Shown: positions 16,102 through 56,721, counted from the stretch's first letter. The stretch: DNA of 64,000 nucleotides from an uncultured Phycisphaera sp. (GCA_964486335.1 CAZAMB010000005.1:100008-164007), one strand, 5' to 3'. The notes: generated from the letters alone by a model not told the origin. Translations and numbers: made by a program.

Positions 16102-16246
16102 CGTTGATCACGCCTATATTGTCCTTGAAGCACCATCGCCGCAAGCCCCAATCTCGATTCGCGGTTCGCATCAGTCGCTTTCTCACGGGCCGGGTTGTTT
16201 GCAATTGCCGGCAGTCGTAGACTGGTCGGTTCGGAGAGCCACTTTC

Positions 16247-19521: not shown

Positions 19522-19608
<87 letters not shown>

Positions 19609-20642: not shown

Positions 20643-20651
20643 TGCACTTAC

Positions 20652-40200: not shown

Positions 40201-40256
40201 TTCGTTCCGCGACGGCCAACGAACAAACACGCTGATTAAGGGTCGATTCAACCTGG

Positions 40257-41768: not shown

Positions 41769-41809
41769 CGCCTTGCGAAAACTGCATGGCCCAGCTATAC
41801 TTCCCAGTC

Positions 41810-42169
41810 ATGACTTCGAGCCATTCCACGGTTGCACCGCCGCGAACGCTGCCGGCTCCCGAGACGCTGGAGGACACGCGCGCTCACCATCAGCTTCTGC
41901 CGATGTATCATGTTGTCCTGCTTGATGACAATGACCATACGTATGACTACGTGATTTCCATGCTTCGAAAGCTCTTTGGCATGACGACCGAACAGGCCTT
42001 CGTTCACGCCAACGAAGTGGACACGCAAAAACGAGTGATCCTCGATACGACCACGCTCGAAAGGGCTGAGTTAAAGCGGGATCAGATTCACACGTTTGGG
42101 CGCGATTGGCGCATTCCTCGTTGTGCCGGCAGCATGTCCGCGGTCATTGAGCCGGCCGGCGACCGATAA
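41810..42169 (+). CDS. clpS: ATP-dependent Clp protease adaptor ClpS
   Basis: MYHVVLLDDNDHTYDYVISMLRKLFGMTTEQAFVHANEVDTQKRVIL is the ClpS core. Start at the MTSSHS Met. Confidence 0.85.
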   Translation: MTSSHSTVAPPRTLPAPETLEDTRAHHQLLPMYHVVLLDDNDHTYDYVISMLRKLFGMTTEQAFVHANEVDTQKRVILDTTTLERAELKRDQIHTFGRDWRIPRCAGSMSAVIEPAGDR

Positions 42170-42309
42170 GCCCACAGAGATAGACACTTTTCTCAAGCCC
42201 ACTGAATTCGCGGGCCTGCGGTGCTTCGCTTGCGAATCGGCAGAATGTGTTTTTTTCGAGTCGTTGACAGCCCGAAACGACCCGGCTAACGTTTGGAAGC
42301 GATGTCTTT

Positions 42310-42381
42310 GCGGGTGTAGCTCAGTGGTAGAGCGTCACGTTGCCAACGTGAATGTCGAGGGTTCGAGCCCCTTCACCCGCT
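42310..42381 (+). tRNA. tRNA-Gly (anticodon GCC)
   Basis: GCGGGTGTAGCTCAGTGGTAGAGCGTCACGTTGCCAACGTGAATGTCGAGGGTTCGAGCCCCTTCACCCGCT. Acceptor GCGGGTG/CACCCGC, anticodon loop TTGCCAA; no encoded CCA. Confidence 0.9.
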
Positions 42382-42653
42382 GTTCCTGACGCGCCGTACC
42401 ACGAAGCGACACAGGCGTGCAACCTTTGACTCCAACGCTAGTTACAGCGACCGATTCTCGGCTTTCCTAGATTCTCATTGCCTGGTCGCTTTTGCCAGAA
42501 AGTGACCGGAATGGACCGCAGTGGACGCCCATTCGTGCAAGGTCTAGTGCGAATTGAACTCGATGAAAATGCTACGAGGGTTGTGAATTGGCGGGCTTCG
42601 ATTGGTGGTGGGTCGACGCTCGGAGATTCGTCGACCAGTGCGCTCAAAGTAGA

Positions 42654-43166
42654 ATGGAAATGGTCATGGGAATTCGCAACGTCATGGCAGCATTTGAGGC
42701 AATCGATCGTTGCGTCACGAGATGGATGGCTCGTTATGGGCAGCTGCTCCTTCGATTAAGCTTGGCCTTTGTTTTCCTCTGGTTTGGCGCCTTGAAATTC
42801 TTTCCCGAAATGAGCCCCGCCCAGGAACTCGCCACGCGTACCATTGGTTATTTGACCGGCGGTTGGGTCGGCCCAGGTCTGTCCGTTCCTGCACTCGCGG
42901 CGTGGGAGTGCCTGATTGGGCTTGGACTCCTCATCGGAAAGGGACTGCGCGCCGTCCTGTTCCTTCTATACTTGCAGATGATGGGTACGTTGACGCCCGT
43001 GGTCCTCTTTCCCGAAGTAGTGTTTTCCCGCATTCCTTTCGTTCCGACCTTGGAAGGACAGTACATCATTAAGAACCTCGTATTGATCAGTGCAGGCATT
43101 GTGATCGGCGCGACTGTTCGCGGTGGCAAGCTGGTCGCCGAGCCGCACGCCGTTGTGGACGAATGA
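42654..43166 (+). CDS. DUF417/YkgB(RclC)-like inner-membrane protein
   Basis: About 170 aa, RYGQLLLRLSLAFVFLWFGALKF.. four-TM pattern typical of the DUF417 family. Start ambiguous (42654 or 42684). Confidence 0.55.
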   Translation: MEMVMGIRNVMAAFEAIDRCVTRWMARYGQLLLRLSLAFVFLWFGALKFFPEMSPAQELATRTIGYLTGGWVGPGLSVPALAAWECLIGLGLLIGKGLRAVLFLLYLQMMGTLTPVVLFPEVVFSRIPFVPTLEGQYIIKNLVLISAGIVIGATVRGGKLVAEPHAVVDE

Positions 43167-43627
43167 ACTTACAGAGTACGCCGGACGGTTTCACGCTCCC
43201 ATTCCAGGCATTCGGCAATCCATAAGGAAAGCTCGGCGGCCAGGTCCGCTCGCAGGAGGATGTACGAGCCCCGACCGTATTTTTCGTCGACTGGATGCAA
43301 CACGGCATGGGCGGCGGGTGTGGTCAATTCCAATTAGCCTACCGTCATCGACGCCCGTTCGCTCTTCAGCGGTCCGGTCAGTGCGAGCATTTGATAGATC
43401 AATTCCCATTCTCGTCTTGCGCGTTCGAGATGAGCAATCAGTTCTAGGTTATACGACTGTATATTGTGCGCTCGCTCCATGGCGGCATGCAAATCATTCA
43501 ACGTCAGAGCCGCTCGCTTCCACGTGGCCCGACTTTCGCGAGTTCGCCACTCCTCGCTTGAAAGCACGACTTCGCGTCTGTACTCCGCAAGAGGCCGCGA
43601 CTGGGCGACGAGCAAAAACCGTTTCAA
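43148..43627 (-). pseudogene. DinB/YfiT-like or regulator-like gene interrupted by an in-frame TAA
   Basis: A 97 aa ORF ends at TAA (43333..43331). The same frame continues for 54 more codons of protein-like sequence (..HPVDEKYGRGSYILLRADLAAELSLWIAECLEWERETVRRTL) down to a TAA at about 43169..43167. Confidence 0.35.
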
Positions 43628-43772
43628 TTCAGATTCAGTCGAGGCGCTTCGCGGGAGACACTGATCTTTGGTTCAGACGGGAGCGCAAAAAGTTGCCAAA
43701 TGCGTCCGGGGCGTTTGCTTGAGAATGAAGTATGAGACAGAATCCCGATACTCTTCAGCTTGAGGCACACTA

Positions 43773-44009
43773 ATGCGACCCAGTTTTAATACAATTTGGC
43801 AAAACGGGCGCTTTACAGGATCTTTGACGCAACATCTCAAAAAGATTGCTCAATTGAGTAGATCGACTTTCAATTGCGAACGCTACTTGAAAGCGCTTCT
43901 TAATATTATCATACTATCAACTGATGCTCGTCTCATTAGAACGAAAGGACTCTCGGAGTTTTTGCGGCAGCGTGTTCCGCATTCGGGCCTCATATCAAAT
44001 TCGGCCTGA
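43773..44009 (+). CDS. questionable small ORF in an AT-rich segment
   Basis: 78 aa ORF in a 43690..44050 stretch of about 42% GC, far below the window average. No family recognised. Confidence 0.2.
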   Translation: MRPSFNTIWQNGRFTGSLTQHLKKIAQLSRSTFNCERYLKALLNIIILSTDARLIRTKGLSEFLRQRVPHSGLISNSA

Positions 44010-44055
44010 GCGGGGCTGACAAGGACGTTGAGCTGTCCTACCCAATCATGACGCT

Positions 44056-45465
44056 GTGCCATCGAAAAGTGTTTGGCTGAGGTTTTTCTGTGAAGGCCGT
44101 TGCCTTTCGAGGGCCGCGCTGGCGCGGTCGCTTGCGGACCAAGGCGTATCGGTCGTGGATCCTTTGTCAGAGCGCGAGTCCGGCCCCGGAATTGTCGTAT
44201 TCCAAATTGTTAATTCCGAGCTCTGTGAGCTGATGTCCAAAGTCTCATGTTGTGGTTCGGAACGAGTGCTCGCTTTGGCCGATACTCCATCTGTACTTAA
44301 AAAAGGAGACGTTTGGCGCCTTTTGCACGCCGGCGCGGCGGATGTATTTGATTGGGTGGAATCGGCCAATCCGGCACGGGAGATCGCGATCCGGTTGACA
44401 CGTTGGACCGAGGTCGACGAAATTGTCAAATCATCTCTGGTTCGGGAAAACCTGATTGGACATAGTCGAATTTGGAACGACCTCCTTCGACAAATCGTCG
44501 AAGTAGCGCGATTTTCCGAAGCCTCGATTCTGATAACAGGAGAGAGTGGAACCGGTAAGGAATTGATTGCCCGTTTGATCCATACACTCGATGCCCGGCC
44601 AGACAAAGGTGAACTCGTCGTGCTCGACTGCACAACGATTGTACCGGAACTCGCTGGAAGCGAATTCTTTGGTCACGAGCGTGGGGCCTTTACCGGAGCG
44701 ATTGTCGCACGTGATGGCGCCTTCGCGCTGGCGAACGGCGGCACGCTTTTCCTCGACGAAGTCGGAGACCTACCACGGACGTTGCAGGCGCAGTTGCTTC
44801 GCGTGATACAGGAACACACCTATAAACGTGTAGGAGGCAACCAATGGTGCCAGTCGCATTTTCGATTGTTGTGTGCCACGAACAAGGACTTGACGGTTGA
44901 GGTGAAGGAAGGGCGATTTCGCGCCGACTTGTACTACCGAATTGCAGATTGGACGATTCGATTGCCCCCACTTCGTGACCGTACCGAGGACATTCCCCTG
45001 TTGGCTCGACACTTCATCCAAGCCCATGGCCACCATCGGAGCGATTTCAATTCCGAAGTGACCGAGTATCTGTTGTCTCGGGACTACCCGGGAAACGTTC
45101 GCGATCTGAAACAAGTGGTGGCGCGAATGAGCCATCGACACGTTGGCCAGGGCGAAATCACCGTCGGAGCGATCCCGCCCACGGACCGGCCTCAGGCGGA
45201 GAGTCCGTTGGATAGATGGAGCGACAGAGTGTTCGAACTACCGGTTCGACACTCTCTGGCAGTTGGCGTGGGACTGAAGGAAATCGGCCGAATTGCCGAG
45301 GAGACCGCCGTTCAGATCGCTCTCGCGGAAGAAGGCGGAAATCTGCAGCGAGCCGCTCGACGATTGAAAGTGTCGGATCGCGCCTTGCAGCTCCGACAAG
45401 CCAACGGACGAGGACCCAAGGAAGCGCCCAGCGACCCCGTCATCGAGGGACGGACGCCTGCGTAG
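44056..45465 (+). CDS. sigma-54-dependent transcriptional activator (bEBP) with degenerate N-terminal receiver-like domain
   Basis: AAA+ sigma-54 interaction domain (ITGESGTGKELIARLIH, GAFTGA, ESELFGHE-like FFGHERGAF), C-terminal Fis-type HTH. The N-terminal ~130 aa resemble a receiver but lack an obvious phospho-acceptor Asp. GTG start at 44056. Confidence 0.85.
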   Translation: MPSKSVWLRFFCEGRCLSRAALARSLADQGVSVVDPLSERESGPGIVVFQIVNSELCELMSKVSCCGSERVLALADTPSVLKKGDVWRLLHAGAADVFDWVESANPAREIAIRLTRWTEVDEIVKSSLVRENLIGHSRIWNDLLRQIVEVARFSEASILITGESGTGKELIARLIHTLDARPDKGELVVLDCTTIVPELAGSEFFGHERGAFTGAIVARDGAFALANGGTLFLDEVGDLPRTLQAQLLRVIQEHTYKRVGGNQWCQSHFRLLCATNKDLTVEVKEGRFRADLYYRIADWTIRLPPLRDRTEDIPLLARHFIQAHGHHRSDFNSEVTEYLLSRDYPGNVRDLKQVVARMSHRHVGQGEITVGAIPPTDRPQAESPLDRWSDRVFELPVRHSLAVGVGLKEIGRIAEETAVQIALAEEGGNLQRAARRLKVSDRALQLRQANGRGPKEAPSDPVIEGRTPA

Positions 45466-46282
45466 CCGGCGAAGGTTGGAGCCATGGCTCATTTGGCTCG
45501 ACCATCGGTCTGGAGGGCTTGGCGCCAAAGTGAACGGAACCGACGGGGTTTCGCGAGACTTGGGAAATGAGCCTCAGGATATTCCCGCCGAGAACAAGTC
45601 GCGCGTACTGGGGCGACATGCCAAGCGCTCGAACCTTGGCCAACTCGACGCCAGGATGCAACCAAGGACCGTCGGAACCAAACAGAATTTTTCTTGCGCC
45701 GGCACGATGAAGCGCTTCTTCGAGCAGATCGAACCTTCTTACACCGGACGTATCGGTATGGACATTGGGGTAACGAGTCAGTATGTCCAGGAACGCTCGC
45801 TGGGCGCGCCAGTCGTCTGCGAAGCTGCCCAGATGCGGGATAATGAAATTGACGCCGGCGTATTCCGAAGCGATCAACTCTACCTGCGAGACCTCGCCCA
45901 TCACATCGTAGAGGATGGGCAATGACCAGCGTTTCGCGGCTGCGCAAACCTCTCTTGTGATGGAAGCGTTGTACCGATGGACCTTGATTCCGCGAAATCC
46001 ATGCACGTGCACCGCCTCGTCGATCATCGCCTGCATTCGACCCCGGTCGGCATGTGGGTGGACGAAGGCAAAGCCGATAAAACGACCATTGGATTGAGCG
46101 ACAATTCTCGCCACTTCGCGGTTGGCGGTTCGGTAGTCGGAATGAAACGCAGGGAAGAGTACAGTTCGGCGAATCCCGGCCGCGTCGGCCCGAGCAATGT
46201 ACTTCCCAAGCGGCGCAGCGGTGTCCCAGGGACCCGTCAATCCGTCTCCGCGACCGGCATGGCAATGGCAGTCAATGATCAT
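45440..46282 (-). CDS. amidohydrolase-2 family TIM-barrel metal-dependent hydrolase
   Basis: MIIDCHCHAG (HxH) N-terminus, later His and Asp ligands (FIIPHLG, FGSDGPW). Confidence 0.8.
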   Translation of the reverse strand: MIIDCHCHAGRGDGLTGPWDTAAPLGKYIARADAAGIRRTVLFPAFHSDYRTANREVARIVAQSNGRFIGFAFVHPHADRGRMQAMIDEAVHVHGFRGIKVHRYNASITREVCAAAKRWSLPILYDVMGEVSQVELIASEYAGVNFIIPHLGSFADDWRAQRAFLDILTRYPNVHTDTSGVRRFDLLEEALHRAGARKILFGSDGPWLHPGVELAKVRALGMSPQYARLVLGGNILRLISQVSRNPVGSVHFGAKPSRPMVEPNEPWLQPSPATQASVPR

Positions 46283-46442
46283 GGAATCAACCTGAAAATC
46301 GTGATGGACCGCCTGCGGTAGTTGAAGTTCATTGCCGATGCGTCATGGATTCGTCGCCTCTGGGACTTCAGTAACATCTCCGACAAGACCAATTGAATAC
46401 CGGGCCGTCTGTTCACAATTGCCGAAGCGATTTGATTTTAGT

Positions 46443-47447
46443 TTATAGAATCGCACCCGATCGAGATTTGAACCAGGGGGTCAACCGTCTGGCGCCGTCC
46501 AGATTCAGTTCGGTGTGAATGTGATTCGTATGCGGACTAGGGCCAGCATAGTTTCCGTCCTTTCGGCCACTCCGTGAACCATTCCATTTGATACGATTCC
46601 AAATAACGAACTGAATTCCGATGGCCGAAGCATTTTGTACAAGCCAGTTCGCTATCGGATCTCCGACGGCGGAGTTTGCTTGGTGATCTATTTCGCGAAT
46701 CATGATGTCGAGAGCGCGCCCCACCCCGTGAACGGAGGTTTCTGACGGAGTTGCTGAATTAAATCGACATGCATAACCACCGACGGAATCAACGCCTGGA
46801 AACGTCCTTCGTATATAGGTTCCCAGTTCGGCCGCGCCAGGTGTAAACGTGCCGCTGCAATTGCGTCCATTGGCCCACGGTGGAGGACTATCATAGCGAA
46901 CAAACTGTGCTTCGCCGGCAGCGCGAACGTCGGCGGGTAGCACCCATTTCTCGCTCGAAATCGACGGGCTCGGAGAATCCGGCATACTTCCCGTGAGTCG
47001 CTCCCAGGTCCGTCTGCCGACAATGCCGTCAACCGTCAAGCCGTTCGCTCGCTGAAATGTCAGTACCGCCGCTCTCGTAAGGGGACCGAAGGCCCCATCC
47101 TCAGAAAGGCGGCTTTGTCCGGGCGCGGCGTTAGTCGCAATCCAAGCATTAAGTCGTCTTTGCAATTCGATGACAGCCGCTCCGCGCGAACCGGTTCGCA
47201 GCGTTGGCCAAGTTGGTGACTCGTTGAGAATCTCGTCGAACGATAACTCGTCAAGACCAAGTTCATGACCAGGGGACTGCTCAATTTGAAGTACACCGGG
47301 CAAGATCTCATCCAGCTCGGTTGAAAATGGCGATTGATGATCCAGCGGCAGGATGATGTTGCGGCCATGTCGAAACCAGCGGCCGCCTCGTTTTGCACGC
47401 AGGCCACTTGTTTTTCTTACAGAAGATGATGCGCGCAGTCTGTTCAT
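46443..47447 (-). CDS. endolysin-like protein: peptidoglycan-binding domain (PG_binding_1) plus LAS/M15-type metallopeptidase-like C-terminal domain
   Basis: LTVDGIVGRRTWERL is the PG_binding_1 signature. SVHGVGRALDIM and HTNHIHTE resemble LAS-peptidase zinc ligands (SxHxxGxAxD ... H). ATG at 47447 overlaps the upstream stop (ATGA). Residues ~20-35 carry the GRWFRHGRNIILPL motif. Confidence 0.6.
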   Translation of the reverse strand: MNRLRASSSVRKTSGLRAKRGGRWFRHGRNIILPLDHQSPFSTELDEILPGVLQIEQSPGHELGLDELSFDEILNESPTWPTLRTGSRGAAVIELQRRLNAWIATNAAPGQSRLSEDGAFGPLTRAAVLTFQRANGLTVDGIVGRRTWERLTGSMPDSPSPSISSEKWVLPADVRAAGEAQFVRYDSPPPWANGRNCSGTFTPGAAELGTYIRRTFPGVDSVGGYACRFNSATPSETSVHGVGRALDIMIREIDHQANSAVGDPIANWLVQNASAIGIQFVIWNRIKWNGSRSGRKDGNYAGPSPHTNHIHTELNLDGARRLTPWFKSRSGAIL

Positions 47448-48604
47448 GACCTGACTCCTTGGTTTAGGGACAAAGTGGAACCGTAAGATTCCCCGGCGGC
47501 TGAATTCTCGAGTTTCAATTGGCGTGCGCGCGCCAGCGCTTGGCACGCTGAACTGATGTCAATTGGGTTGTGATCGGCGTTGATCAGAAAGGCGATGTTT
47601 GCCCGTGCAGGTCTTTGAACCGAAAGCAGTACCGTTTGGACCCCCATACCCCTAAGCCGACCGGTCATTCTCCTTGCTTCGCCTGACGACCGAAACGACA
47701 ATATCTGCACAGGGAAGAGTCCCGGAGATGGCGTGAATCCTGCCGATCGTGTTCCGGCACGAAATCGTCGTACATTGGAGAGGAGCTGCGATCGTCGTGA
47801 GTTGCCGATGCGCTCGTTGGCCGTCAGCGCGTTCGTGGCAGCCCTGATGGACGCCTGGGAAGGCGGACTGCAATGAACTCGAGTCTCGCTGCGCGTTGCA
47901 AACTGCTCGACAATGTCACCGCGACTCGACAGAGCGGCCACCGGCGCTCCGAATCCCTTGGCCAGGGAACTGATCAAGACCAATTCCTTCGCGCGAACGC
48001 CCCACCACTGGGAGCTTCCGCCTCCGCCTAGCCCATACGGCATTGTTCGCGTCGGTCGCGCGCCAAGAACGCCAAGCGCTTGAGTGTCATCTACGACAAC
48101 AAGACCCTTCACGGCTCGCATCTGACGAAGATAGCTTGTAAGAGGTGCAACCCGTCCGCATCGCATACAGGAACCATCAACGACAACCACCGGACGTGAT
48201 GCAGGCCCGCCAGCATCCTGAAGTGATCGACGCAATGACGAAGGGCAATAGTGCCGAAACGTCTGGACAGACGCGCCGCGCGCCGCCGCCCGTTCCAGTC
48301 CCCAGCGTCCGATGGGATAAAGTCCGCTATCCATGAAAAACCGTGCCCCTTCGTCGGCGAGCATGCCGAGGAAGTCCCAAAACAAGTGTAACGTCGAAGT
48401 TCCAAGCAAAGCCGCTTCACAGCCTTGCAGGTCGGCCAACAATTGGGCGACCCGCTTCGCCTCAGCTGACTCATCAAGTGCCGCAGGTCGGCCGGTCGTC
48501 AACTGCTCCCACGATCCCAGCGCCGAACTCGGGTGCCGCATGCCCAGATACTGGGCCGAGGTAAAGTCAAGCACTGGATGATTTCCGTCAACGACCTCTG
48601 CCAC
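47444..48604 (-). CDS. alpha-oxoamine synthase (BioF/KBL)-like class I/II PLP-dependent aminotransferase, divergent
   Basis: 386 aa, SLAKGFGAP matches the S-x-x-K PLP-lysine motif of the AONS/KBL family. Overall pattern of fold-type I enzyme. Confidence 0.65.
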   Translation of the reverse strand: MAEVVDGNHPVLDFTSAQYLGMRHPSSALGSWEQLTTGRPAALDESAEAKRVAQLLADLQGCEAALLGTSTLHLFWDFLGMLADEGARFFMDSGLYPIGRWGLERAAARGASVQTFRHYCPSSLRRSLQDAGGPASRPVVVVDGSCMRCGRVAPLTSYLRQMRAVKGLVVVDDTQALGVLGARPTRTMPYGLGGGGSSQWWGVRAKELVLISSLAKGFGAPVAALSSRGDIVEQFATRSETRVHCSPPSQASIRAATNALTANERIGNSRRSQLLSNVRRFRAGTRSAGFTPSPGLFPVQILSFRSSGEARRMTGRLRGMGVQTVLLSVQRPARANIAFLINADHNPIDISSACQALARARQLKLENSAAGESYGSTLSLNQGVRS

Positions 48605-50261
48605 CCGTCAATTGCGATTGCAGCCGTTGGCTTAATAGCACTGAAGGCATGGTCGCATTCACCATTCCACTCACCGGCTGAGCTGTCAGATCAACACCCG
48701 TAGCCGCGCGGTAAGCATGGAGGTAACCCTGAATTTCCGGCTTCCAATATCGAGCCCATGTTCGAGCGTGTTCCTGGTCTGTTAGGACATTCCAGTTTCC
48801 ATACCGGATCGAGAGCAGAATCCGTTCTCCGAGGACGCCCAAATCGCGAAAATGGGTGACCGTTACGTCGCTCCAACCCTGAACTCGTTTCATCGCGTCC
48901 ACGCGGCCCATCCACGGTTCCGCATAGGGCACCATGATCCGAGTGCCGAGGAATTCGCGCATTTCGGGTCGGGACAACAACCACTGCTGCATCATCATCT
49001 CGACTCGCGCTGTCCACGGCAGATCCCCGAATTGATTGTGCGCCCCTTGGGCAAGCAGCAAATGGACTTCCTTTAGCGCGTTGAGAAGAGGGAACCCGTC
49101 GGAAATCACGGTCGTGTCCGAGTCTTCCTGAAAAAACACGGAGCTGCGATACAAAAGATCGTGAAATGCTTCGAGAAACTTTGAACGGTTGTCGGCCGGA
49201 CGCATGGTCGAAACGGCCTTGCCCGCGAGCGCCAGTCCGTAGTGGTGGCTATACTCATAGGCTCGGCGAGGAACCGTGAGGCGATGGACTTCGTCCTGGA
49301 TGTACCCCCAAAGAAAGTTGTTGAGTGGCCTCAGCGGATCGATTTCCAACTCGGCCAATGGGTCGCGACCTGCGCCGCGCCGTTTGTTCTGGAATCGAAG
49401 GCTGATGGCGTTCAATGTTTGCGCCAACATCCCTTCTTCGTGCCAATACGACCAGATCAGTTCCAGCAGGCATGGACAAGAAGATTTCGCGCAGAGGATT
49501 TTCCCGTCACAGAAGGCCGAGGTAGCCGTCTGTTCTCGCCAATTCTCACCGAAGGCAGCGGTTAGAATCGTGTTCAAGTAATTGATATCCTTCGTTCGCA
49601 AGTAACTCGCCAGCTTGTCGCTAATGTCCTTCAGGGTGCCGCCCGGCAATGGGAAGTCATCCTCCAGACGTTTGACTTCAGATCCGGGGTCATCCTTTTC
49701 ACCCCATCCTTCGGTCTCGGCGCATGCGCATGGATCGCAATTACTCTTTTCACCTGCTTCTTGTTGTTTCTGAGCAGATGCGCCTTCGCGTGTTGTCGAT
49801 TCCGGATCGTCGGGTTTACGATAACAGGGATCAGGCTTTTTCTTTTCGGGGTCCAGAAACTCATCAGGATGCATTCCCTTTTGAAACGGCCCGCATGTGC
49901 AGCCGCAGCGGATGAGCAAAAACGTCTCCGTGGCCGTCTTCAAAAGGTCGTAGGCGTCCATGCCGTGGATGCAGGGTTCCTTGCTCAAACTTTCTCGCAG
50001 CCTTCGTTCCGGGCAGCAGTCGGGATCTTTGGTGTCTTTGTCGCAGAGCACTCGATCAATAAACTTCGCGTATTCCGAGAACGATGTCCGTTCCGAAGCA
50101 GTCCGAATCCACATCCATAACGGATACGTGTCGTCCCGTTTGAGCGGGGATCTCGAAAGCGAAAAGGTGCCGGACGCCGGCTTGGCAAAATCGCCAGAAA
50201 CACTTACCTTGACTCCCTTCGCCAGCTCTTTACCTTCAACAATAATCTTTCCTTCAGCCAT
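48588..50261 (-). CDS. hypothetical Cys-rich protein (557 aa), no recognisable family
   Basis: Strong RBS aaggag 7 nt upstream. Multiple CC/CxC clusters (DPDCCPE, IRCGCTCGP, CDPCACAE, CAKSSCPCL). Local GC is visibly lower than the flanking core genes. Confidence 0.6.
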   Translation of the reverse strand: MAEGKIIVEGKELAKGVKVSVSGDFAKPASGTFSLSRSPLKRDDTYPLWMWIRTASERTSFSEYAKFIDRVLCDKDTKDPDCCPERRLRESLSKEPCIHGMDAYDLLKTATETFLLIRCGCTCGPFQKGMHPDEFLDPEKKKPDPCYRKPDDPESTTREGASAQKQQEAGEKSNCDPCACAETEGWGEKDDPGSEVKRLEDDFPLPGGTLKDISDKLASYLRTKDINYLNTILTAAFGENWREQTATSAFCDGKILCAKSSCPCLLELIWSYWHEEGMLAQTLNAISLRFQNKRRGAGRDPLAELEIDPLRPLNNFLWGYIQDEVHRLTVPRRAYEYSHHYGLALAGKAVSTMRPADNRSKFLEAFHDLLYRSSVFFQEDSDTTVISDGFPLLNALKEVHLLLAQGAHNQFGDLPWTARVEMMMQQWLLSRPEMREFLGTRIMVPYAEPWMGRVDAMKRVQGWSDVTVTHFRDLGVLGERILLSIRYGNWNVLTDQEHARTWARYWKPEIQGYLHAYRAATGVDLTAQPVSGMVNATMPSVLLSQRLQSQLTGGRGR

Positions 50262-50285
50262 GATTTTCTCCTTCGTTCGACGGGA

Positions 50286-51614
50286 CTATGAGGCCCGTGC
50301 GATTGTTTTCTGTGTTCGACCGACGAAAACCCTGCTCCGCGAACAACGGACACAAGCGCCAAACGTGCTTCGAAGCGCCCAATGACTGAGCAATCCACTC
50401 ACGAGGCGACTCTCTTCAACCGGATTGAGGACGCCGTACGCTTTTGCTTGTCCCAATACGGCGAACACAAGCGACTCCGGAGCGGCCCGCAACTGTTCTG
50501 GAAATCGTCGCCAGGTCTGAAAGAGTCTCATTAGGCGATGTGGTTGCCGCTCCTCGACACCGAGGACTTCCCCCAGAGACAATCCCCTGAGAGACTTCGG
50601 TCGATGATGTGTCAACAACGCCACAAAACCAGGAATGCTTGCCTGTAACGCGTTGAATAGCGCGAAACGTCTTGGGTCAAGCTGCGTTGGCGGATAAAAC
50701 GCGTCCCACATCCTCGCGAAATGTTCCCATTGCGGATGTGGATAGAGCGCTTGTCCGACCGCACAACTGAGCTTGACCCTGATCCACGGGCTTGGGTGCG
50801 GATCGTCAAGGTTGATTCGAAAAACGAATCCACGCGGCAGACTGACTACACTCATCAATCCCATGGTGGACGTGATGCCCAACTTCGCCACGGACCAGAA
50901 GTCGGCAACAACCTCGGAAATCCACCGCTCCCAGGCCAGCCACGCAAACGCTTCTGCGCTCCCTTTCTTCCGCATTCCCAGAAGAATTGGCCGGAAGGAC
51001 GGAACCAGTTTCAGCAGTTCCGCTGCCTGATGACCGACCTCGTGGACCAAAGACGATGCGATTCCGCTGCCTACCATTCTCTCCCGCGGCACGCGGATAA
51101 TGGCAACGGGATTGCGCCCGCCCGTGGGCATCCGCGTTCGCGCCCGCCGTATCGCCGCGCCGGGTCCGCGGTCCAGGTAACAAATCACCGGCGGTTCCGA
51201 GTAGTAGCCGCCACCAAGGTGCAATGCATCGGCGGCAAACGCATCCAGTCCGGATAGCCAGATTCCCGTTTCATGTTCGCTGCGTTGAGTGATTGCATCC
51301 GCAAACAGATCAAGATCCGAAAGGACGGCGTTGAACCGCAATCGGAGGAGTACGAATCGCCGCTGCGCTTCCTCGGCGGAGGACAACCGCCCATTCGAAC
51401 CCTCAAGCCACGCCAGAAATGCAACGACTTGTTCCCGCAAATTGCGTCGCCCTTGAAGCAAGTACCCGTCGATGGCTCTTTGCGCGGTTGAGGAAATCGC
51501 CGCGGCGGTTACCGAAGTGATTTGCAGCGCGAATGGCTTCACGATAGCCAGTCGTGTCAGCAGGGCACGGGCTTCCTGCGCAAGAAAACAAGTTGTGTTG
51601 GAACGCATGGACAC
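50286..51614 (-). CDS. hypothetical protein with HExxH zinc-metallopeptidase-like motif (442 aa)
   Basis: LVHEVGHQAAEL motif. GTG/ATG start with gggag RBS. No family recognised. Confidence 0.6.
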   Translation of the reverse strand: MSMRSNTTCFLAQEARALLTRLAIVKPFALQITSVTAAAISSTAQRAIDGYLLQGRRNLREQVVAFLAWLEGSNGRLSSAEEAQRRFVLLRLRFNAVLSDLDLFADAITQRSEHETGIWLSGLDAFAADALHLGGGYYSEPPVICYLDRGPGAAIRRARTRMPTGGRNPVAIIRVPRERMVGSGIASSLVHEVGHQAAELLKLVPSFRPILLGMRKKGSAEAFAWLAWERWISEVVADFWSVAKLGITSTMGLMSVVSLPRGFVFRINLDDPHPSPWIRVKLSCAVGQALYPHPQWEHFARMWDAFYPPTQLDPRRFALFNALQASIPGFVALLTHHRPKSLRGLSLGEVLGVEERQPHRLMRLFQTWRRFPEQLRAAPESLVFAVLGQAKAYGVLNPVEESRLVSGLLSHWALRSTFGACVRCSRSRVFVGRTQKTIARAS

Positions 51615-51620
51615 GACTTG

Positions 51621-52289
51621 TCAAACTCCCAACAGAATGATGCGCCGACCGCGGCGAATCCAGCGACCGCTCTGCCCCGCACTCGAAGTGCTCGCCAGCC
51701 CAGTGTTCATGAGGCCTGGCGCATGACGTTGAGCCGCGGCGGCCAGGGCCGACTTTGCGACGATTCGGGGATCAGTGGTATGTGGGGATGCGGCGGCGTG
51801 CTGAGCAGCGGCGCCGGCCAAGCGAACGAATCGTCGGGCGATTTCAAATTCCTGATCTTCGCCGCTGAGGCCCTCAAATTCCAAGCCAAACAGCTTGCCG
51901 GCCGCGGATCCGGCGGCACTTCCAAGCGCCGTTCCGACACCGGGGATCGGGATGAGTGACCCCAGGGCGCCTCCGGCAATCGGCAGAACCTTCTTGGCGA
52001 TGCCTTTGAGGATTCCGCCAAGCGGACGGAAAACGCGAGGAGCGATGCGCTTAATCCCCTTCCAGGCGCGCTTGAACAATTTGCCGAGGAATTCATCGAT
52101 TTCCTGGTCGCTCGACAATGTGAGCAGTTCGGAGGCGAAATCAACTTCTTCGTCCTGCGTAAATGGTCCCTCGCCGGTCCCGAAATCTCCAAATTCTTCG
52201 AAGACTTCAAAATCGCTCGTTTCACCGCCGAAACCATCGGTTTCCCCGGTGTCTTCGAAATACGTCTGAGTCTGGTCTATGTCGTGCAT
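51621..52289 (-). CDS. hypothetical protein (222 aa): acidic N-terminus, Gly-rich amphipathic middle, C-terminal GRWIRRGRRIILLGV motif
   Basis: Strong RBS aggag 7 nt upstream. Paralogous to the next gene upstream. Confidence 0.55.
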   Translation of the reverse strand: MHDIDQTQTYFEDTGETDGFGGETSDFEVFEEFGDFGTGEGPFTQDEEVDFASELLTLSSDQEIDEFLGKLFKRAWKGIKRIAPRVFRPLGGILKGIAKKVLPIAGGALGSLIPIPGVGTALGSAAGSAAGKLFGLEFEGLSGEDQEFEIARRFVRLAGAAAQHAAASPHTTDPRIVAKSALAAAAQRHAPGLMNTGLASTSSAGQSGRWIRRGRRIILLGV

Positions 52290-52301
52290 GTGTTTCTCCT
52301 C

Positions 52302-53291
52302 TTAAATGCCAAGTGCTACGATGGTGTGTCCCGTACGCATCCACCTGCCGTTACCGGGCCGATGAATGGCATAACTGATCCTTGATTCATCCTCGGTTTG
52401 GTCTTCCTCAGGTGCGACAGGAGGCTTGTTGCTTATGCCGAAACCTTGGTCGATCGAATCCTGAATGACGCTTCCACAATGTTGGGCACATGCCGCACAA
52501 TCGCACTCGATTGGCTCCACGGGTTCCGGCGCGACACCGGCGGCCGAACGTGCCCCACCATTGCTCGATGACGACGGAAAAGAAGATGGCATGGACGTTT
52601 GCGCAGGCCGTGTTCCGCTGTCGGTCGGAGGAAATTCCGGCCCATGGGATGGCTTTCCTGTGCGATGCCGCCATCTCCGTTTGCGTCGAAGCTGCTCGCG
52701 AAGAACGCGGAGTGCTGTTCTAATGGCAGGCAAAGCAGCATTTCTCGCGTGTTGTGTACGAGACAGCCGTCTCGCCAACCGACCTGCCAATCGTCCAAAC
52801 CGAACAGCTCGACGTGCTCTCTCAAGGTCCTCTTCATCCGTTTCGAACCCCTCAAGACTGCCATCAATGAACTCCCGAAATTGAGCGTTCAAAGACTCTG
52901 ACGGATCGCCCATGGGCGACGACGCGATGAAGGGTACCCGGCGAATGCCATCAATTGCGCTCTGTACTTGCGGCGTGATGAACTTGGCCAGACTATTCGT
53001 CGTTGAAGTGAGTGACTCCCCGCATTTGCCTAATGTCGCGAGCACAGCTCTGGCAATCTCGTTGCCACTGACCGCTCCTAGCAGGTCAATTGCCAGTTCT
53101 TCTTCGTTTTTTTGGCGATCGTACATAGCACAATTCAATTGGATTGGACTCGCGCATGGGTCCGAACTCAGCTGTGAAAGAAAGCAAGTTCCATGCCAGA
53201 AAAACTGGGCCAATAATGGGCATTCTGGCGAAGTGTACTTCGCAACGACTGATGAACGGTGCAATTCAGCGAATCGCGCTTCGCCGATCAT
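52302..53291 (-). CDS. hypothetical protein, paralog of the 222 aa protein; C-terminal GNGRWMRTGHTIVALGI motif
   Basis: Shares an acidic segment (EGFETDEEDLERARRAVRFGRLAG vs EGLSGEDQEFEIARRFVRLAG) and the terminal motif with the downstream gene. Start is either 53291 or the internal Met near 53125. Confidence 0.5.
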   Translation of the reverse strand: MIGEARFAELHRSSVVAKYTSPECPLLAQFFWHGTCFLSQLSSDPCASPIQLNCAMYDRQKNEEELAIDLLGAVSGNEIARAVLATLGKCGESLTSTTNSLAKFITPQVQSAIDGIRRVPFIASSPMGDPSESLNAQFREFIDGSLEGFETDEEDLERARRAVRFGRLAGRLARRLSRTQHARNAALPAIRTALRVLREQLRRKRRWRHRTGKPSHGPEFPPTDSGTRPAQTSMPSSFPSSSSNGGARSAAGVAPEPVEPIECDCAACAQHCGSVIQDSIDQGFGISNKPPVAPEEDQTEDESRISYAIHRPGNGRWMRTGHTIVALGI

Positions 53292-53542
53292 TCTGTTCGC
53301 TGTTGTCCAGTGAACGAAACAGGCCGAGGTGTTATGGGATTCCGTGGCCTGTGGTCAATGGTATTGGATAAGGCAACGAATCACTCGTTTCGAGGTGAAT
53401 CGGACGTTTAAAGTGACGAATCCTGACTTGATCCTACTCGATTGCTCCAATGCTGGGATGAATACTCATTTAACAGATCGCAAATGGCTCTTGGAAAGAA
53501 ACGTGGAAGGGGTTTCCGCATTCTCCGTAACTCTTTGGTTTT

Positions 53543-53613
53543 GCGCGGTTTAGAACTCGCTGCGTTCATGTTGCCTACGTAAATGTCGAGGGTTCGAGTT
53601 CCTTCACCCGCTT
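53543..53613 (+). pseudogene. decayed copy of tRNA-Gly(GCC), with similarity to the 3' flank of the intact tRNA-Gly continuing to about 53720
   Basis: 3' 45 nt gttgcctacgtaaatgtcgagggttcgagttccttcacccgct align to the intact gene with 4 mismatches. The 5' half (D-arm) is scrambled. A further ~110 nt downstream align at about 75-80% to 42382..42490. Confidence 0.6.
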
Positions 53614-53656
53614 TGTTTGACGCGCCGTGCCAGCGAGTGACATCGCGGTCCAACTC

Positions 53657-53863
53657 TTGACCCCAGCGCGAGTTACGACGACCGATTCTTGCCTTTCCCA
53701 GGTTTACATTTCATGGTCGCGTTTCGAGCTGTCTAAGCGGGCGGGCGTCCCGTACAGCGGAATCCACCGCTTTATCAGCTACGACCGCGACCTGACCCTG
53801 ACAACGGCGTCACGGCTGGCCGACGTGCTGGGGCTGGAATTGCGCCCTGCAAAAGGAAAGTAG
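53657..53863 (+). CDS. small XRE/Cro-type helix-turn-helix protein (possible excisionase/regulator)
   Basis: LSKRAGVPYSGIHRFISYDRDLTLTTASRLADVLGLEL matches the HTH_XRE pattern. Immediately upstream of the integrase. Start codon uncertain (candidate TTG at 53657). Confidence 0.4.
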   Translation: MTPARVTTTDSCLSQVYISWSRFELSKRAGVPYSGIHRFISYDRDLTLTTASRLADVLGLELRPAKGK

Positions 53864-53870
53864 GTGCATC

Positions 53871-55340
53871 ATGCCGAGAGTATTCCGGCAAAAATACACG
53901 CAACCGACGGCAGACGGAAAACGAAAAACGCGACAAAGCGCTAAGTGGTACGTCGAGTACCGCGACGCCCAAGGCATTCGGCGTCGGGTTCCGGGGTACA
54001 CCGACAAGGGCGCGACCCAACAGCTCGCGGCGGAGTTGGAACGAAACGCGGAGCGACAGCTCGCGGGTCTGGTCGATGCCTTTGCCGATCATCGAAAGCG
54101 CCCTTTGCGGGAACACCTGAATGATTGGCACGGCGCCTTGATCGCACGCGGCGCGTCGCGCGATTATGCCGACTTGGTCAAGAGCCGAGCGACCAAGGCG
54201 CTGACAGGTTGCGGATTCGTTTTCCTTGCCGACGTATCGGCATCCGACCTGCAAGCCTATCTGAGCAGGTTGCGAAGCGACGGACTGAGCATTCAAACGG
54301 TCAATTTCTACCTGCAAGCGGTCAAGCAGTTTTTCCGCTGGATGGTTGCTGACCGACGAATGCCCGACAACCCGGTCGCGTACCTGCGCGGGGGGAATGT
54401 CCGAACGGATCGTCGCCACGATCGACGCGCACTCGACACTGATGAACTGCGATCGCTACTCGACGCTACGAAGAATGGACCGGAACGGTTTGGCATGAAG
54501 CCTGATGCGCGGGCAATGCTTTATCAGCTTGCGGTTGAAACTGGTCTGCGGGCCACCGAACTGCGAACGCTGACTTGGGATTGTCTGGACTTGGAAGGCG
54601 ACCTGCCGACGGTGACGGTCAAGGCCGGTTATAGCAAACACCGGCGAACCGATACCCTTCCTTTAAAGCCGTCTACGACGCAAACGCTGGCCCGCTGGAG
54701 CAACGAACTCGGCAACGTGGACCCAACGGCACGCCTTTTCAACATGCCGCCCAAGGCCGCGAAAATGCTCCGAGCTGATCTGGCCGACGCTGGCTTACCG
54801 TATGCCGATGCTGATGGGCGCGTGGCCGATTTTCATTCCTTGCGGCACACTTACATTTCCAATCTGGCCCGTGGCGGTGTTCATCCAAAGATCGCCCAAC
54901 AGCTTGCCCGGCATTCGACCATTACGCTGACGATGGATCGCTATTCGCACACGGTTTTGGGCGAGCTATCAGACGCACTGTCGGCCCTGCCGGAGCTGGA
55001 CGCCACGCCATTCGAGCAAGAATCGGTGAGAGCGACCGGCACCTGCGGCAACCCCCAAAAATGCTTACCGATTTCCTTACCGAAATCCTTACCGAAACGC
55101 GGTGCGCGGCGAGAGTTGTCCCATTCATCGGCGTGCAATGATCCAACGCAAACCGCGAAATTCGACCGGCAAGAAAATCCTATGAATATAGGTATTTCCT
55201 GCGCTTCCACGCGTGACGACGCGGGTGTGTTCGTGGAACAATCCCGACTGCGCCCGGCGGGATTCGAACCTGCGACCCCCGGTTTAGGAAACCGGTGCTC
55301 TATCCAACTGAGCTACGAGCGCAACAATCGGCTAGTATAA
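53871..55340 (+). CDS. tyrosine-type site-specific integrase (phage integrase family)
   Basis: N-terminal SAM-like core-binding region and C-terminal catalytic box HSLRHTYIS (HxxR) ... LTMDRYSH (catalytic Tyr). The open frame continues ~130 aa past the Tyr, through the antisense tRNA-Arg, to the first stop at 55340. Confidence 0.85.
   Translation: MPRVFRQKYTQPTADGKRKTRQSAKWYVEYRDAQGIRRRVPGYTDKGATQQLAAELERNAERQLAGLVDAFADHRKRPLREHLNDWHGALIARGASRDYADLVKSRATKALTGCGFVFLADVSASDLQAYLSRLRSDGLSIQTVNFYLQAVKQFFRWMVADRRMPDNPVAYLRGGNVRTDRRHDRRALDTDELRSLLDATKNGPERFGMKPDARAMLYQLAVETGLRATELRTLTWDCLDLEGDLPTVTVKAGYSKHRRTDTLPLKPSTTQTLARWSNELGNVDPTARLFNMPPKAAKMLRADLADAGLPYADADGRVADFHSLRHTYISNLARGGVHPKIAQQLARHSTITLTMDRYSHTVLGELSDALSALPELDATPFEQESVRATGTCGNPQKCLPISLPKSLPKRGARRELSHSSACNDPTQTAKFDRQENPMNIGISCASTRDDAGVFVEQSRLRPAGFEPATPGLGNRCSIQLSYERNNRLV
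55249..55322 (-). tRNA. tRNA-Arg (anticodon CCT)
   Basis: Minus strand GCGCTCGTAGCTCAGTTGGATAGAGCACCGGTTTCCTAAACCGGGGGTCGCAGGTTCGAATCCCGCCGGGCGCA. Anticodon stem CCGGT/ACCGG with loop TTCCTAA, T-loop TTCGAAT, acceptor with one G-U pair. Confidence 0.8.
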
Positions 55341-55588
55341 CGGTCCACTGGCCGAAAGCCCGTTACCTAGACCCCTTCCCATCGAGCCTCGTTTACAAAC
55401 GAGGGTTTACTAGTTATCGGACCTTATCGGCTGAAACCAGTCCGGTTTTCTCAATTGAGTCACTGGCGGAATCCGAAATGGTCGAATACGATCATGCCCC
55501 CTCCGTGATCGTGGTATTCGATCGCTTGAGGGTTATGTTGCGTGATGGCGTTGTTTTCCGGTGGCAGTTTGCGTAGATAGGAGCTTTC

Positions 55589-55786
55589 GTGATCAAAGTC
55601 CGACCCCGAGGGAATGAATCAGTCCAGCAATTGCTCAAGCGGTTTAAGCGCCTTTGTCAACGAGAAGGACTGATTCGCGACATGAAGCGGCACAGCTACT
55701 ACGAGAAACCCTCGGATCGAAAGAGACGTCAGTCCCGCAAAGTTGTGCGCAAGGTTGACGTGGTTGAAACTCCGCGGGCGCGCTGA
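55589..55786 (+). CDS. rpsU: 30S ribosomal protein S21
   Basis: 65 aa, MIKVRPRGNESVQQLLKRFKRLCQREGLIRDMKRHSYYEKPSDRKRR is the canonical bS21 sequence. Confidence 0.9.
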   Translation: MIKVRPRGNESVQQLLKRFKRLCQREGLIRDMKRHSYYEKPSDRKRRQSRKVVRKVDVVETPRAR

Positions 55787-55816
55787 TCGGCTAGCATGGA
55801 TTTGAGGAAGTTCTTC

Positions 55817-55847
55817 AGGCGGGGCATTTTGCTCCGCCTTTTTTATT
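55817..55847 (+). terminator. rho-independent terminator after rpsU
   Basis: aGGCGGGGcattttgCTCCGCCtttttta: GC-rich stem followed by a T-run, 30 nt after the rpsU stop. Confidence 0.6.
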
Positions 55848-55929
55848 GACGCGGCCGTCATCGCCCACCACCCGCTCACCGGGTCATCCGATAGTATCCG
55901 TGGAGCGCTGCGAACGAACGCGAAGGGGC

Positions 55930-56721
55930 ATGGACATGGACAAGAACAAACCGGTGGCCTTGGTGACCGGTGGTTCACGGGGAATCGGTCGTGCGATCTG
56001 CGTCGAGGTCGCCCGCGCAGGTTTCGACGTGGTCATCAACTTCAATGAGAATCTGGGCGCGGCCGAGGAGACTCGGGTGCTCGTCGAAAAGGCGGGCGGC
56101 ACTGGAGAAACCTGTCAAGCCGATATCACATCATCATCCGATCGGGATCTGCTCGTCGAATACGCGATGGAACGCTTCGGCCGCATCGATCTGCTCGTCA
56201 ACAATGCCGGCATCGCGCCCAAGGTCCGCAAGGACATACTCGAAACAGACGAACAGACTTTCGATCATATTCTCAACGGCAATCTCCGCTCTCCCTACTT
56301 CGTCACGCAGCGCGTCGCGAGGGAAATGATTCAACTCATTCAGTCGAAGCGCATCAGTCGCGCGTCGATCGTCAACATCTCTTCGCTTCGCTCCTACACG
56401 GCGGCCCGAAATTACGGAGAATACTGCGTCAGCAAGGCCGGAGTCGGTATGATCACCAAGCTTTTCGCCGTCCGTCTGGCCGAATACGGTATCGGTGTTT
56501 ACGAAGTCTGCCCCGGTATCATCGAAACCGACATGACTTCGTCGCAAGCCACGCGCGACTATTACAACCGCGAAATCGCCAAGGGCATGGCTCCGATCAA
56601 CCGGTGGGGCAGGCCCGAGGAAGTCGCCTTGGCCGTCGGCGCCGTCGCTCGAGGGTACTTTCCGTTTAGCACCGGCATGGTGCTTCATGTCGACGGCGGG
56701 TGGCACCTTCGACACCTGTGA
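55930..56721 (+). CDS. short-chain dehydrogenase/reductase (3-oxoacyl-ACP-reductase-like SDR)
   Basis: VALVTGGSRGIGRAI, NNAG, SSLRSYTAARNYGEYCVSKAG (S..YxxxK), PGIIETDM. Confidence 0.85.
   Translation: MDMDKNKPVALVTGGSRGIGRAICVEVARAGFDVVINFNENLGAAEETRVLVEKAGGTGETCQADITSSSDRDLLVEYAMERFGRIDLLVNNAGIAPKVRKDILETDEQTFDHILNGNLRSPYFVTQRVAREMIQLIQSKRISRASIVNISSLRSYTAARNYGEYCVSKAGVGMITKLFAVRLAEYGIGVYEVCPGIIETDMTSSQATRDYYNREIAKGMAPINRWGRPEEVALAVGAVARGYFPFSTGMVLHVDGGWHLRHL

Follow-up and report, generated by a model that had tools for sequence, protein, structure and literature searches.

The uncultured Phycisphaera sp. GCA_964486335.1 carries, on contig CAZAMB010000005.1, a 13-kb segment enclosed by two convergent tRNA genes, tRNA-Gly(GCC) and tRNA-Arg(CCT), and the question raised by this locus is whether the enclosed DNA was acquired and, if so, by how many insertions. 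The segment was examined within a stretch of 64,000 nucleotides (nt) (100008-164007 of the contig), hereafter the window, and all coordinates are window positions. An earlier note, made from the DNA alone, had proposed an acquired integrative island at tRNA 3' ends, possibly formed by two successive or tandem integrations. The acquired island is supported by a repeat of attachment site (att) type, a matching integrase pseudogene, the corresponding loci of relatives and the composition of the DNA; successive or tandem insertion is retained as well, but with three elements instead of two. With a probability of about 0.8, the 13 kb are considered to be foreign DNA made up of three decayed integrative elements, termed E1, E2 and E3, each of which would have been inserted by a tyrosine integrase recombining within the 3' part of a tRNA gene.

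Two tRNA genes and a long direct repeat

The tRNA genes were called with ARAGORN and Rfam, and protein domains were searched for in Pfam, NCBIfam and PHROGs, with PADLOC in addition for one transcriptional activator. On the left, the segment is limited by an intact tRNA-Gly(GCC) gene (42310-42381, plus strand; ARAGORN; Rfam tRNA score 71.9 bits), found exactly where it had first been reported. This gene, the putative integration target, follows the genes coding for MiaB (40257-41768) and ClpS (41753-42169), both recognised with Pfam. The right limit of the foreign segment is an intact tRNA-Arg(CCT) gene (55248-55323, minus strand; ARAGORN; Rfam score 66.9 bits), beyond which lies rpsU (55589-55786), annotated as S21 on contig L082. 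Both tRNA genes are thus intact, as expected for integration into the 3' part of a tRNA gene.

A single long direct repeat is present in the region 41500-56500, between positions 42335-42493 and 53566-53724 (159 nt, 78% identity, gapless; blastn E = 2e-32). Its first 47 nt correspond to the part of tRNA-Gly that begins with the first base of the anticodon stem and extends to the 3' end (42/47 identical), and the other 112 nt, referred to as flank F, correspond to the DNA downstream of the tRNA (73% identical between the copies). The earlier note had placed a diverged second copy at 53543-53720; the repeat is real, but that start lies about 23 nt too far left. Indeed, the DNA left of copy 2 shows no resemblance to the 5' half of tRNA-Gly or to its upstream DNA (Smith-Waterman score 16, reached by 444/2000 shuffles, the number used in all shuffle tests), so that copy 2 comprises the 3' part of the tRNA only, and its interpretation as a whole decayed tRNA was rejected on the same score. 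The possibility that the flank is a known small RNA was likewise unsupported, an Rfam search of both flank copies having returned nothing apart from the tRNAs.

E1, an element in the tRNA-Gly gene

The contigs of relatives were picked with the nearest MiaB proteins of a large protein database (77-82% identical), and the MiaB-ClpS-tRNA-Gly locus was compared in L087, L089, L091, L100 and L101, all with 78-82% MiaB identity. A scan of genome contigs with MiaB gave, among the matches listed, only identities of 66% or less, without a tRNA-Gly nearby. A DNA pattern taken from the tRNA-Gly end and its flank retrieved L095, a 2.4-kb contig from the metagenomes of the Joint Genome Institute, which contains the 3' part of a tRNA-Gly without its 5' half, a flank like that of the window and a 498-amino-acid (aa) integrase on the opposite strand. 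The same pattern also matched L094, inside a purD gene, which was discarded as a chance match. In L100 (81% MiaB identity), tRNA-Gly is followed by a 228-nt spacer and by an integrase encoded on the opposite strand and reading towards the tRNA, which is 78% identical to that of L095.

By comparison with these contigs, E1 spans positions 42335-53612 (11.2 kb) and its putative parts can be recognised in order. Indeed (i) the attL core (42335-42381, plus strand), the left 47 nt of the 159-nt repeat, runs from the anticodon stem to the 3' end of tRNA-Gly and is identical at 47/47 positions to the att copy of L095, against 42/47 for copy 2; (ii) the P' arm, from the att core to the integrase gene (42382-42555, plus strand), consists of the repeated flank F (42382-42493) and an extension (42494-42555), and is homologous to the spacer between tRNA-Gly and integrase gene in L095 (alignment A4) and L100 (alignment A7), the extension alone giving a Smith-Waterman score of 54 with L095 (shuffle maximum 28; reached by 0/2000 shuffles); (iii) the P arm, a conserved distal end left of attR (53525-53565, plus strand), is homologous to the DNA left of the attR copy of L091 (31/38 identical; Smith-Waterman score 41, shuffle maximum 24, 0/2000 shuffles); and (iv) the attR core (53566-53612, plus strand) is a decayed 3' part of tRNA-Gly with 5 mismatches in 47. 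The repeat starts at the anticodon stem, as do the genuine att repeats of L084 and L085, whose elements are related and are described below. What had been read as about 110 nt of downstream flank is, according to the L095 and L100 alignments, not host DNA but an element arm between att core and integrase gene.

The integrase gene belonging to these sites is present as a pseudogene of the tRNA-Gly type (43175-43651, minus strand), which reads towards tRNA-Gly in the usual orientation of its family and is the gene previously described as disrupted. Only an internal stretch is left, equivalent to residues 223-382 of a 498-aa integrase and interrupted by one in-frame stop; it shares 48% identity over 160 aa with the L095 integrase (tblastn, E = 3e-37) and 50% over 159 aa with that of L100 (E = 2e-34). 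Relative to the 498-aa reference, 222 residues have been lost at the N-terminus and 116 at the C-terminus, and with them most of the catalytic domain, which Pfam places at residues 301-468 of the L095 integrase. A gene coding for a DoxX/DUF417-like membrane protein (42588-43166, plus strand) sits where the 3' third of the integrase gene is expected, and residues 383-498 of the integrase are undetectable in this region. The genes listed in the earlier note between the two tRNA-Gly copies are all present, with the qualification that the matches of this membrane protein (Pfam DUF417, E = 1e-5; DoxX, E = 2e-4) both fall below the gathering thresholds. Between the integrase fragment and the cargo genes lies a spacer that is AT-richer in the GC profile (43652-44055) and holds only a 78-aa open reading frame (ORF) (43773-44009), without a match in Pfam, NCBIfam or PHROGs.

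No second integrase was indicated when the window, translated in six frames, was searched with a profile of the E3 integrase family. This was a false negative, since the pseudogene is from a sister family that shares only 27-29% identity with that of E3 (the L095 and E3 integrases share 29% identity over their whole length); it surfaced only when the ORFs of the window were compared with L095. Weak tblastn matches of E3-family tails near tRNA-Gly (P0032 and others) were dismissed as antisense similarity between tRNAs or noise, P0032 being directed at tRNA-Lys. Both cores of E1 (5/47 differing) and both arms are still recognisable, and no intact integrase of the tRNA-Gly type is present in the 64-kb window; in principle, one encoded elsewhere in the genome could act on E1.

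E2, a proposed older element represented by an arm

Past attR, copy 2 continues into a second arm like P' (53613-53724, plus strand), which ends after 112 nt at a truncated helix-turn-helix (HTH) gene. It is 73% identical to the F of E1 and 57% identical to those of L095 and L091. In L100 and L095, F lies between the att core and the integrase gene and is therefore an element-borne P' arm; in L091, the DNA that follows attR is ordinary host sequence and not F-like, which also identifies F as element DNA. The window differs from L091 in this respect, and, given that the flank is element DNA, a second P'-like arm after attR points to a third element, E2, of which this would be the P' arm, older than E1 and of the same family.

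The strongest alternative keeps only two elements: the 112 nt after attR would be native host flank, which the attP of E1 would resemble through an ancestral imprecise excision, and E2 would not exist. Long segments of att identity running past the end of the tRNA are known for HP1 and SLP1, and the two flanks of the window resemble each other (73%) more closely than they do those of L095 or L091 (57%), both in keeping with this view. The position of F in L100 and L095 and the host flank of L091 argue against it, and the flank of the window stops exactly at the truncated gene of another element, which is easier to reconcile with a deletion within an element than with native DNA. This alternative is accordingly regarded as unlikely, and the presence of E2 is preferred.

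Loci of relatives and composition of the segment

The synteny MiaB-ClpS-tRNA-Gly(GCC) is kept in L087, L091 and L100, and the DNA beyond the tRNA varies; in L089 and L101, no tRNA-Gly was found after ClpS. In L087 (82% MiaB identity; 12060-21530), tRNA-Gly is followed by a 414-aa integrase encoded on the strand of the tRNA and unrelated to the E1 type, beyond which D5_N/DUF5906 primase-type, small-terminase (Terminase_4) and Peptidase_S49 domains indicate a phage-like element. By comparison, at least two types of integrase evidently use the tRNA-Gly of this locus. In L091 (78%), no integrase is present; a NHL-repeat protein, a YtkA-like protein and a MauG-like peroxidase are encoded after tRNA-Gly, and the 3' part of tRNA-Gly recurs 4969 nt downstream (87% identity over 60 nt), with a UbiB gene following within about 30 nt, which delimits an island of 4.9 kb. 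In L100, a Ser/Thr kinase-TPR protein and other genes are encoded beyond the integrase, and the cargo differs from that of the window. In none of the relatives examined are the genes of the window found in the same order without an integrase, the arrangement that would be expected of an ancestral core. A short-read contig from the source sample, L001, is identical to positions 39991-42339 of the window and ends 4 bases into the att core of tRNA-Gly; this end could reflect strain variation at the integration site or, equally, the usual break of assemblies in a conserved tRNA gene.

The composition also sets the segment apart, as the heterogeneous GC content noticed at first sight had suggested. 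The GC content of 42382-53565 (55.9%) is lower than that of the DNA on its left (58.5%) and right (59.8%), and the tetranucleotide correlation with the rest of the window is 0.85-0.90 for all 4-kb subwindows lying fully within 42382-55247, below every value obtained outside the segment (0.908-0.955, mean 0.932, standard deviation 0.010).

These observations bear on a second alternative, in which no horizontal transfer took place, copy 2 is a decayed local duplicate of tRNA-Gly with its flank, and the genes in between are ancestral core. The copies are only 78% identical, as an old event would leave them, and part of the flank motif recurs downstream of the tRNA-Gly of L091. A local duplicate would, however, hardly lack the tRNA 5' half and begin exactly at the anticodon stem, nor would it explain why both arms are common to elements in other genomes, two of them with intact integrases, why an integrase pseudogene lies inside the segment, why the content past tRNA-Gly differs in every relative and why the composition deviates. 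Such a duplication is very improbable, and acquisition by integration is preferred. The features by which tRNA-associated islands are recognised are found here: an intact tRNA whose 3' part is directly repeated at the opposite end of the element (E1), a tyrosine recombinase gene adjoining the att site (the pseudogene in E1, the intact gene in E3), variable content at the orthologous site and a composition unlike that of the surroundings.

E3, an element in the tRNA-Arg gene, and its integrase family

To the right of the E2 arm, a small HTH gene and a tyrosine integrase reading into the antisense tRNA-Arg(CCT) are encoded, as the earlier note had described and as Pfam and the tRNA calls confirm. 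The ORF of the former (53627-53863, plus strand; HTH_3, E = 3e-5) matches the Pfam profile at positions 14-52 only, and its residues 34-76 share 44% identity (BLASTP, E = 5e-11) with residues 23-65 of a 71-aa HTH protein encoded upstream of the integrase of L086. The homology begins at 53726, two bases past the end of the arm repeat at 53724, and the earlier codons of the ORF translate arm DNA; the HTH_3 gene of E3 itself (53726-53863, plus strand) is therefore 5'-truncated, with about 22 N-terminal codons missing. The HTH_3 protein encoded beside the integrase of L085 is unrelated to it.

The integrase (53871-55340, plus strand; 489 aa; Phage_integrase, E = 2e-18) is apparently intact. It has more than 2700 homologues, mostly from Planctomycetota, and carries the catalytic residues of the tyrosine recombinases of PF00589 (R, K, H-x-x-R, H/W, Y): R227, K256, H322, R325, H348 and Y358 do not vary in alignment A1, which comprises the window protein and other members of its family (26 sequences in all). 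Its ORF spans the whole antisense tRNA-Arg, so that its last residues, ...RPAGFEPATPGLGNRCSIQLSYE..., are an antisense translation of that gene. The ORFs of the family remain open for about 130 codons past the catalytic tyrosine (25/26 aligned; 54950-55340 in the window; L084, L085 and L086). This tail contains a conserved LPxSLPKSLP stretch followed by ...LRPAGFEPATPGLGNRCSIQLSYE..., in which the antisense tRNA reads PAGFEPAT...RCSIQLSYE, and the antisense peptide of the T arm occurs in 23/120 (strict pattern) to 42/120 (loose pattern) of the best matches. Both conserved stretches are DNA signals read as protein, namely 12-nt CTTACCG repeats and antisense tRNA, and the apparent protein conservation of the tail lies largely at the DNA level. 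In the window, the repeats, of arm type, form three 12-nt units with CTTACCGA (55062-55098, plus strand; peptide LPISLPKSLP), the only exact matches in the window, and they likewise occur near both element ends in L084 and L085. The att core lies inside the integrase ORF, and the last 15 residues or so come from the host side of the tRNA; integration thus alters these residues.

What an intact element of this family looks like can be seen in L084 and L085, the contigs of the two closest homologues of the E3 integrase (70% and 67% identical). In both, the integrase overlaps a tRNA-Arg(CCT), and a second, partial tRNA-Arg lies about 7.7 kb upstream. The elements are bounded by direct repeats of 53-54 nt, from the tRNA 3' end to the D/anticodon stem, with GCTTACCG arm repeats near both ends, and HTH_17, AAA_25, TubC_N, ParE and HTH_3 genes are found within them. 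The same arrangement is present at a tRNA-Lys in L086, a more distant member of the family. Several E3-family tails match the antisense translation of the tRNA-Ser(CGA) of the window (19522-19608; e.g. P0030, E = 1e-8), and no element is present at this tRNA-Ser in the window. Judging from such matches, the family evidently also targets tRNA-Ser, and tRNA-Lys in L086. In a scan of viral contigs, the L095 integrase gave no match and the E3 family only distant ones (44% identity at most), several of which lie at the ends of the viral contigs retrieved.

In the window, one tRNA-Arg and one CTTACCG cluster are present; neither a second tRNA-Arg repeat nor a distal arm site was found. E3 is thus a stump, consisting of a truncated HTH gene, an apparently intact integrase and the tRNA-Arg gene as attL, from which genes of excisionase and replication type are gone. 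The intact integrase is not that of the 11-kb island; it belongs with tRNA-Arg, in a separate remnant without a second att site. The view that 42382-55247 is a single island still mobilised by this integrase, with tRNA-Gly and tRNA-Arg or their fragments as its ends, can draw on the position of the gene at the end of the segment beside a tRNA and on its being the sole intact integrase in the window, but is barely tenable given that homologues of the integrase are flanked by direct repeats of tRNA-Arg and not of tRNA-Gly, that the window holds no tRNA-Arg repeat or distal arm site, that the adjacent HTH gene is truncated, that a pseudogene of a second integrase family lies beside tRNA-Gly, and that the anticodon stems of the two tRNAs are unrelated.

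Proposed order of events and present state

For the preferred reading of three elements, the following order can be proposed. E2, the older element, would first have rebuilt tRNA-Gly, and E1 would then have integrated in front of it; this tandem accretion is deduced from homologies that are themselves observed. Judging from the anatomy of the segment and from intact relatives, the attP of E1 would have given tRNA-Gly a new 3' part (attL), and the displaced 3' part would now lie 11.2 kb away (attR). E3, from a family of about 7.7 kb specific for tRNA-Arg(CCT), would have entered from the other side. A later deletion may have fused the E2 arm to the middle of the E3 HTH gene, with the loss of the rest of E2, of anything beyond it and of the distal part of E3, including its second att site and its replication and excision genes. 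The E1 integrase would then have been destroyed from both ends, and at the sequence level the surviving fragment indeed shows it truncated at both.

The present state would be a fixed one, with E1 att sites without an integrase, an E3 integrase with one att site, and E2 as scrap; no part of the segment seems capable of autonomous movement. Since the E1 integrase appears dead and E3 has a single att site, no excision is predicted from this anatomy. Among the ORFs of 42382-55247, no relaxase, coupling protein or type IV secretion domains were found with Pfam, NCBIfam and PHROGs, and no capsid, tail, terminase or portal genes, the only phage-like match being a PG_binding_1 protein that is part of a conserved cassette (see below). 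The segment is therefore neither an integrative and conjugative element (ICE) nor a prophage. It is of the ordinary kind of genomic island associated with tRNA genes, probably shaped by tandem accretion and by decay, and found here in a lineage that is poorly sampled.

Several points weigh against the proposed history. The nearest relatives share only 78-82% MiaB identity, and absence of the segment as a unit was not directly seen in them; nor was the deletion that would have fused E2 to E3. The compositional shift is modest (2.6-4 GC points; correlation of 0.87 against 0.93), no significant alignment was obtained between the E1 P arm and the leftmost 45 nt of L095, and E2 as proposed rests on 112 nt. 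Lastly, the DoxX-like gene and the cassette may have come with E1 or have been inserted into it later.

Comparison with known systems

The closest published parallel found is that of the tandem islands of Dehalococcoides at ssrA, the gene of the transfer-messenger RNA (tmRNA), each of which is bounded by a direct repeat of the 3' end of the gene (McMurdie et al. 2011, PMC3146451). In these islands, the integration module lies beside attL on the reverse strand, some islands without a module are discussed as fixed or mobilisable in cis, and the cargo varies (PMC3146451). The window shares with them the tandem islands, the module on the attL side, its absence from some elements and the variable cargo. 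However, a serine recombinase and a 20-bp repeat of ssrA are used in Dehalococcoides, whereas tyrosine recombinases and 47 nt of a tRNA are found here; in the window, moreover, a second hot spot (tRNA-Arg) faces the first and all copies are decayed.

At the Asn tDNAs of Klebsiella pneumoniae (PMC4891358) and in tandems of phages and ICEs (PMC13651849), one tRNA gene is reported to receive differing elements according to the strain, by site-specific accretion. These examples concern active elements in well-sampled pathogens, whereas the window belongs to a poorly sampled planctomycete and holds no intact element.

The relatives of E3 in L084, L085 and L086 resemble P4, the phage-inducible chromosomal islands (PICIs) and the actinomycete ICEs (AICEs), in the combination of an integrase, an excisionase of AlpA/HTH_17 type and a replication protein. 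Indeed, these elements encode an integrase, HTH_3 regulators, an HTH_17/AlpA-like protein and an AAA_25 or primase-polymerase-like protein, have tRNA repeats at their ends and reach a length of 7.7 kb or slightly more; genes for capsids, packaging, relaxase or conjugation were not seen in them. The window retains only the integrase and part of a gene.

Mycobacteriophages such as BPs have an integration-dependent immunity in which attP lies inside the coding sequence of the repressor gene, and the resulting change of the protein is known to matter. The E3-type integrases are similar in that the att core lies inside an ORF and integration alters its C-terminal end, here the last 15 residues or so. 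The altered protein is a repressor in BPs, whereas here it is the tail of an integrase, whose conservation is largely explained by DNA signals.

A conserved sigma-54-dependent cassette as cargo

The genes between 44056 and about 53200 belong together as a unit, in which a sigma-54-dependent activator of the bacterial enhancer-binding protein (bEBP) type (44056-45465, plus strand; Sigma54_activat, E = 1e-56) is convergent with an operon on the minus strand (45440-53126). The activator has an RtcR/PspF-like AAA+ core and a C-terminal HTH_8 domain, and its first 125 residues or so are without characterisation; its best matches are an RtcR-like family of NCBIfam (1.7e-86, below the cut-off) and RtcR_PspF2 in PADLOC (4e-83). 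In order of transcription, the operon, all on the minus strand, encodes a 274-aa protein (52302-53126), a 222-aa glycine-zipper protein (51621-52289; Pfam E = 0.016), a 442-aa protein with an invariant HEVGH motif (50286-51614), a 557-aa protein (48588-50261), a distant aminotransferase-class protein like BioF/Kbl (47444-48604; NCBIfam bioF, E = 3e-18, far below the cut-off), a PG_binding_1 protein matching phage endolysins (46443-47546) and an Amidohydro_2 protein (45440-46282; Pfam). In the Pfam search, four ORFs are without a family. The BioF-like and PG_binding_1 ORFs as listed overlap by 103 nt (47444-47546), and the true start of the latter is probably later than 47546.

The 274-aa and 222-aa proteins have in common an acidic, E-rich/ARRxVR segment and, at the C-terminus, the motif GRWxRxGxxIxLLG, and the PG_binding_1 protein carries the shared motif near its N-terminus, GRWFRHGRNIIL. 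The sites of the motif G-R-W-x-R-x-G-x-x-I-x-L (51621-51665, 52302-52346 and 47346-47390, minus strand) could encode a docking or targeting peptide. A candidate sigma-54 promoter, TGGCATGGAACTTGCT (53183-53198, minus strand), lies 57 nt upstream of the ATG at 53126 and has one mismatch to TGGCAC-N5-TTGCW; as this pattern is not enriched in the window, the call is based on its position and on the neighbouring activator. The candidate falls inside the first 55 codons (53126-53291) of a 329-aa ORF (52302-53291), which are not protein-like; these codons are probably non-coding, and translation is likely to begin at the ATG at 53126. In the Logan contig L082, which has the same sequence, an ORF in a different frame (52433-52864) was called instead of the 329-aa ORF.

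The same gene order with a convergent bEBP is found in a Planctomycetia metagenome-assembled genome (L096/L097; 8454-18970 in L096) and in Nitrospira (L098/L099; 9296-21294 in L098), with no tRNA within 10 kb of these cassettes. Since this order is shared by distant phyla, horizontal transfer is the most likely route by which the cassette arrived. For the 442-aa protein, more than 5700 homologues were found; the best 120 are 60-68% identical and include some labelled as Chloroflexi, Blastocatellia (Acidobacteria), Nitrospira, Methylomirabilis, Methylococcus and Planctomycetia, and the 557-aa protein has 979 cluster representatives; homologues of the cassette occur in at least six phyla and in thousands of metagenomic contigs. 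In the Planctomycetia copies, a DruA gene (Druantia defence) lies just past the activator (19751-20122 in L096; 11722-12369 in L097), and in the Nitrospira copies, a gene for an IS200-type Y1 transposase lies just upstream of the cassette.

Neither of the two large proteins has a Pfam or NCBIfam family, and Pfam returned no domain in any of the best 120 homologues of the 442-aa protein. Their AlphaFold models are all-alpha (predicted local distance difference test (pLDDT) of 80.6 and predicted template modelling score (pTM) of 0.83 for one, 71.9 and 0.74 for the other). Comparison of the models with the folds of the PDB gave nothing specific (Foldseek best E = 0.64 for the 442-aa protein), and sequence searches of the PDB were likewise negative. 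No relative of the 442-aa protein was found with a profile in the viral contigs of IMG/VR, and a literature search found no description of the cassette.

The sole hints at function, the endolysin-like protein of this copy and the amidase or M20 peptidase genes of the other copies of the cassette, point to a possible role linked to the cell wall. On a speculative note, to which little confidence is attached, E1 may carry as its cargo a hitherto undescribed kind of mobile, self-regulated system that would make, process and release membrane-active proteins through the cell wall, in a bacteriocin-like or lysis-linked export, with the shared motif as docking or targeting signal.

Significance

The locus MiaB-ClpS-tRNA-Gly appears as an integration hot spot for at least two unrelated types of integrase in a little-studied lineage of planctomycetes. 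Two related families of integrases are defined, specific for tRNA-Gly and for tRNA-Arg and accompanied by recognisable arms, with which the borders of islands may be marked in Planctomycetota, and the structure of their genes accounts for the additional 130 residues or so, read across a tRNA gene, that gene callers assign to these integrases. The main interest of the island is its widely shared cargo. This nine-gene, sigma-54-dependent cassette, with two fold-orphan proteins, matters more than the island itself: it is a defined target for functional work, and its position inside a recognisable mobile element supports its horizontal spread.

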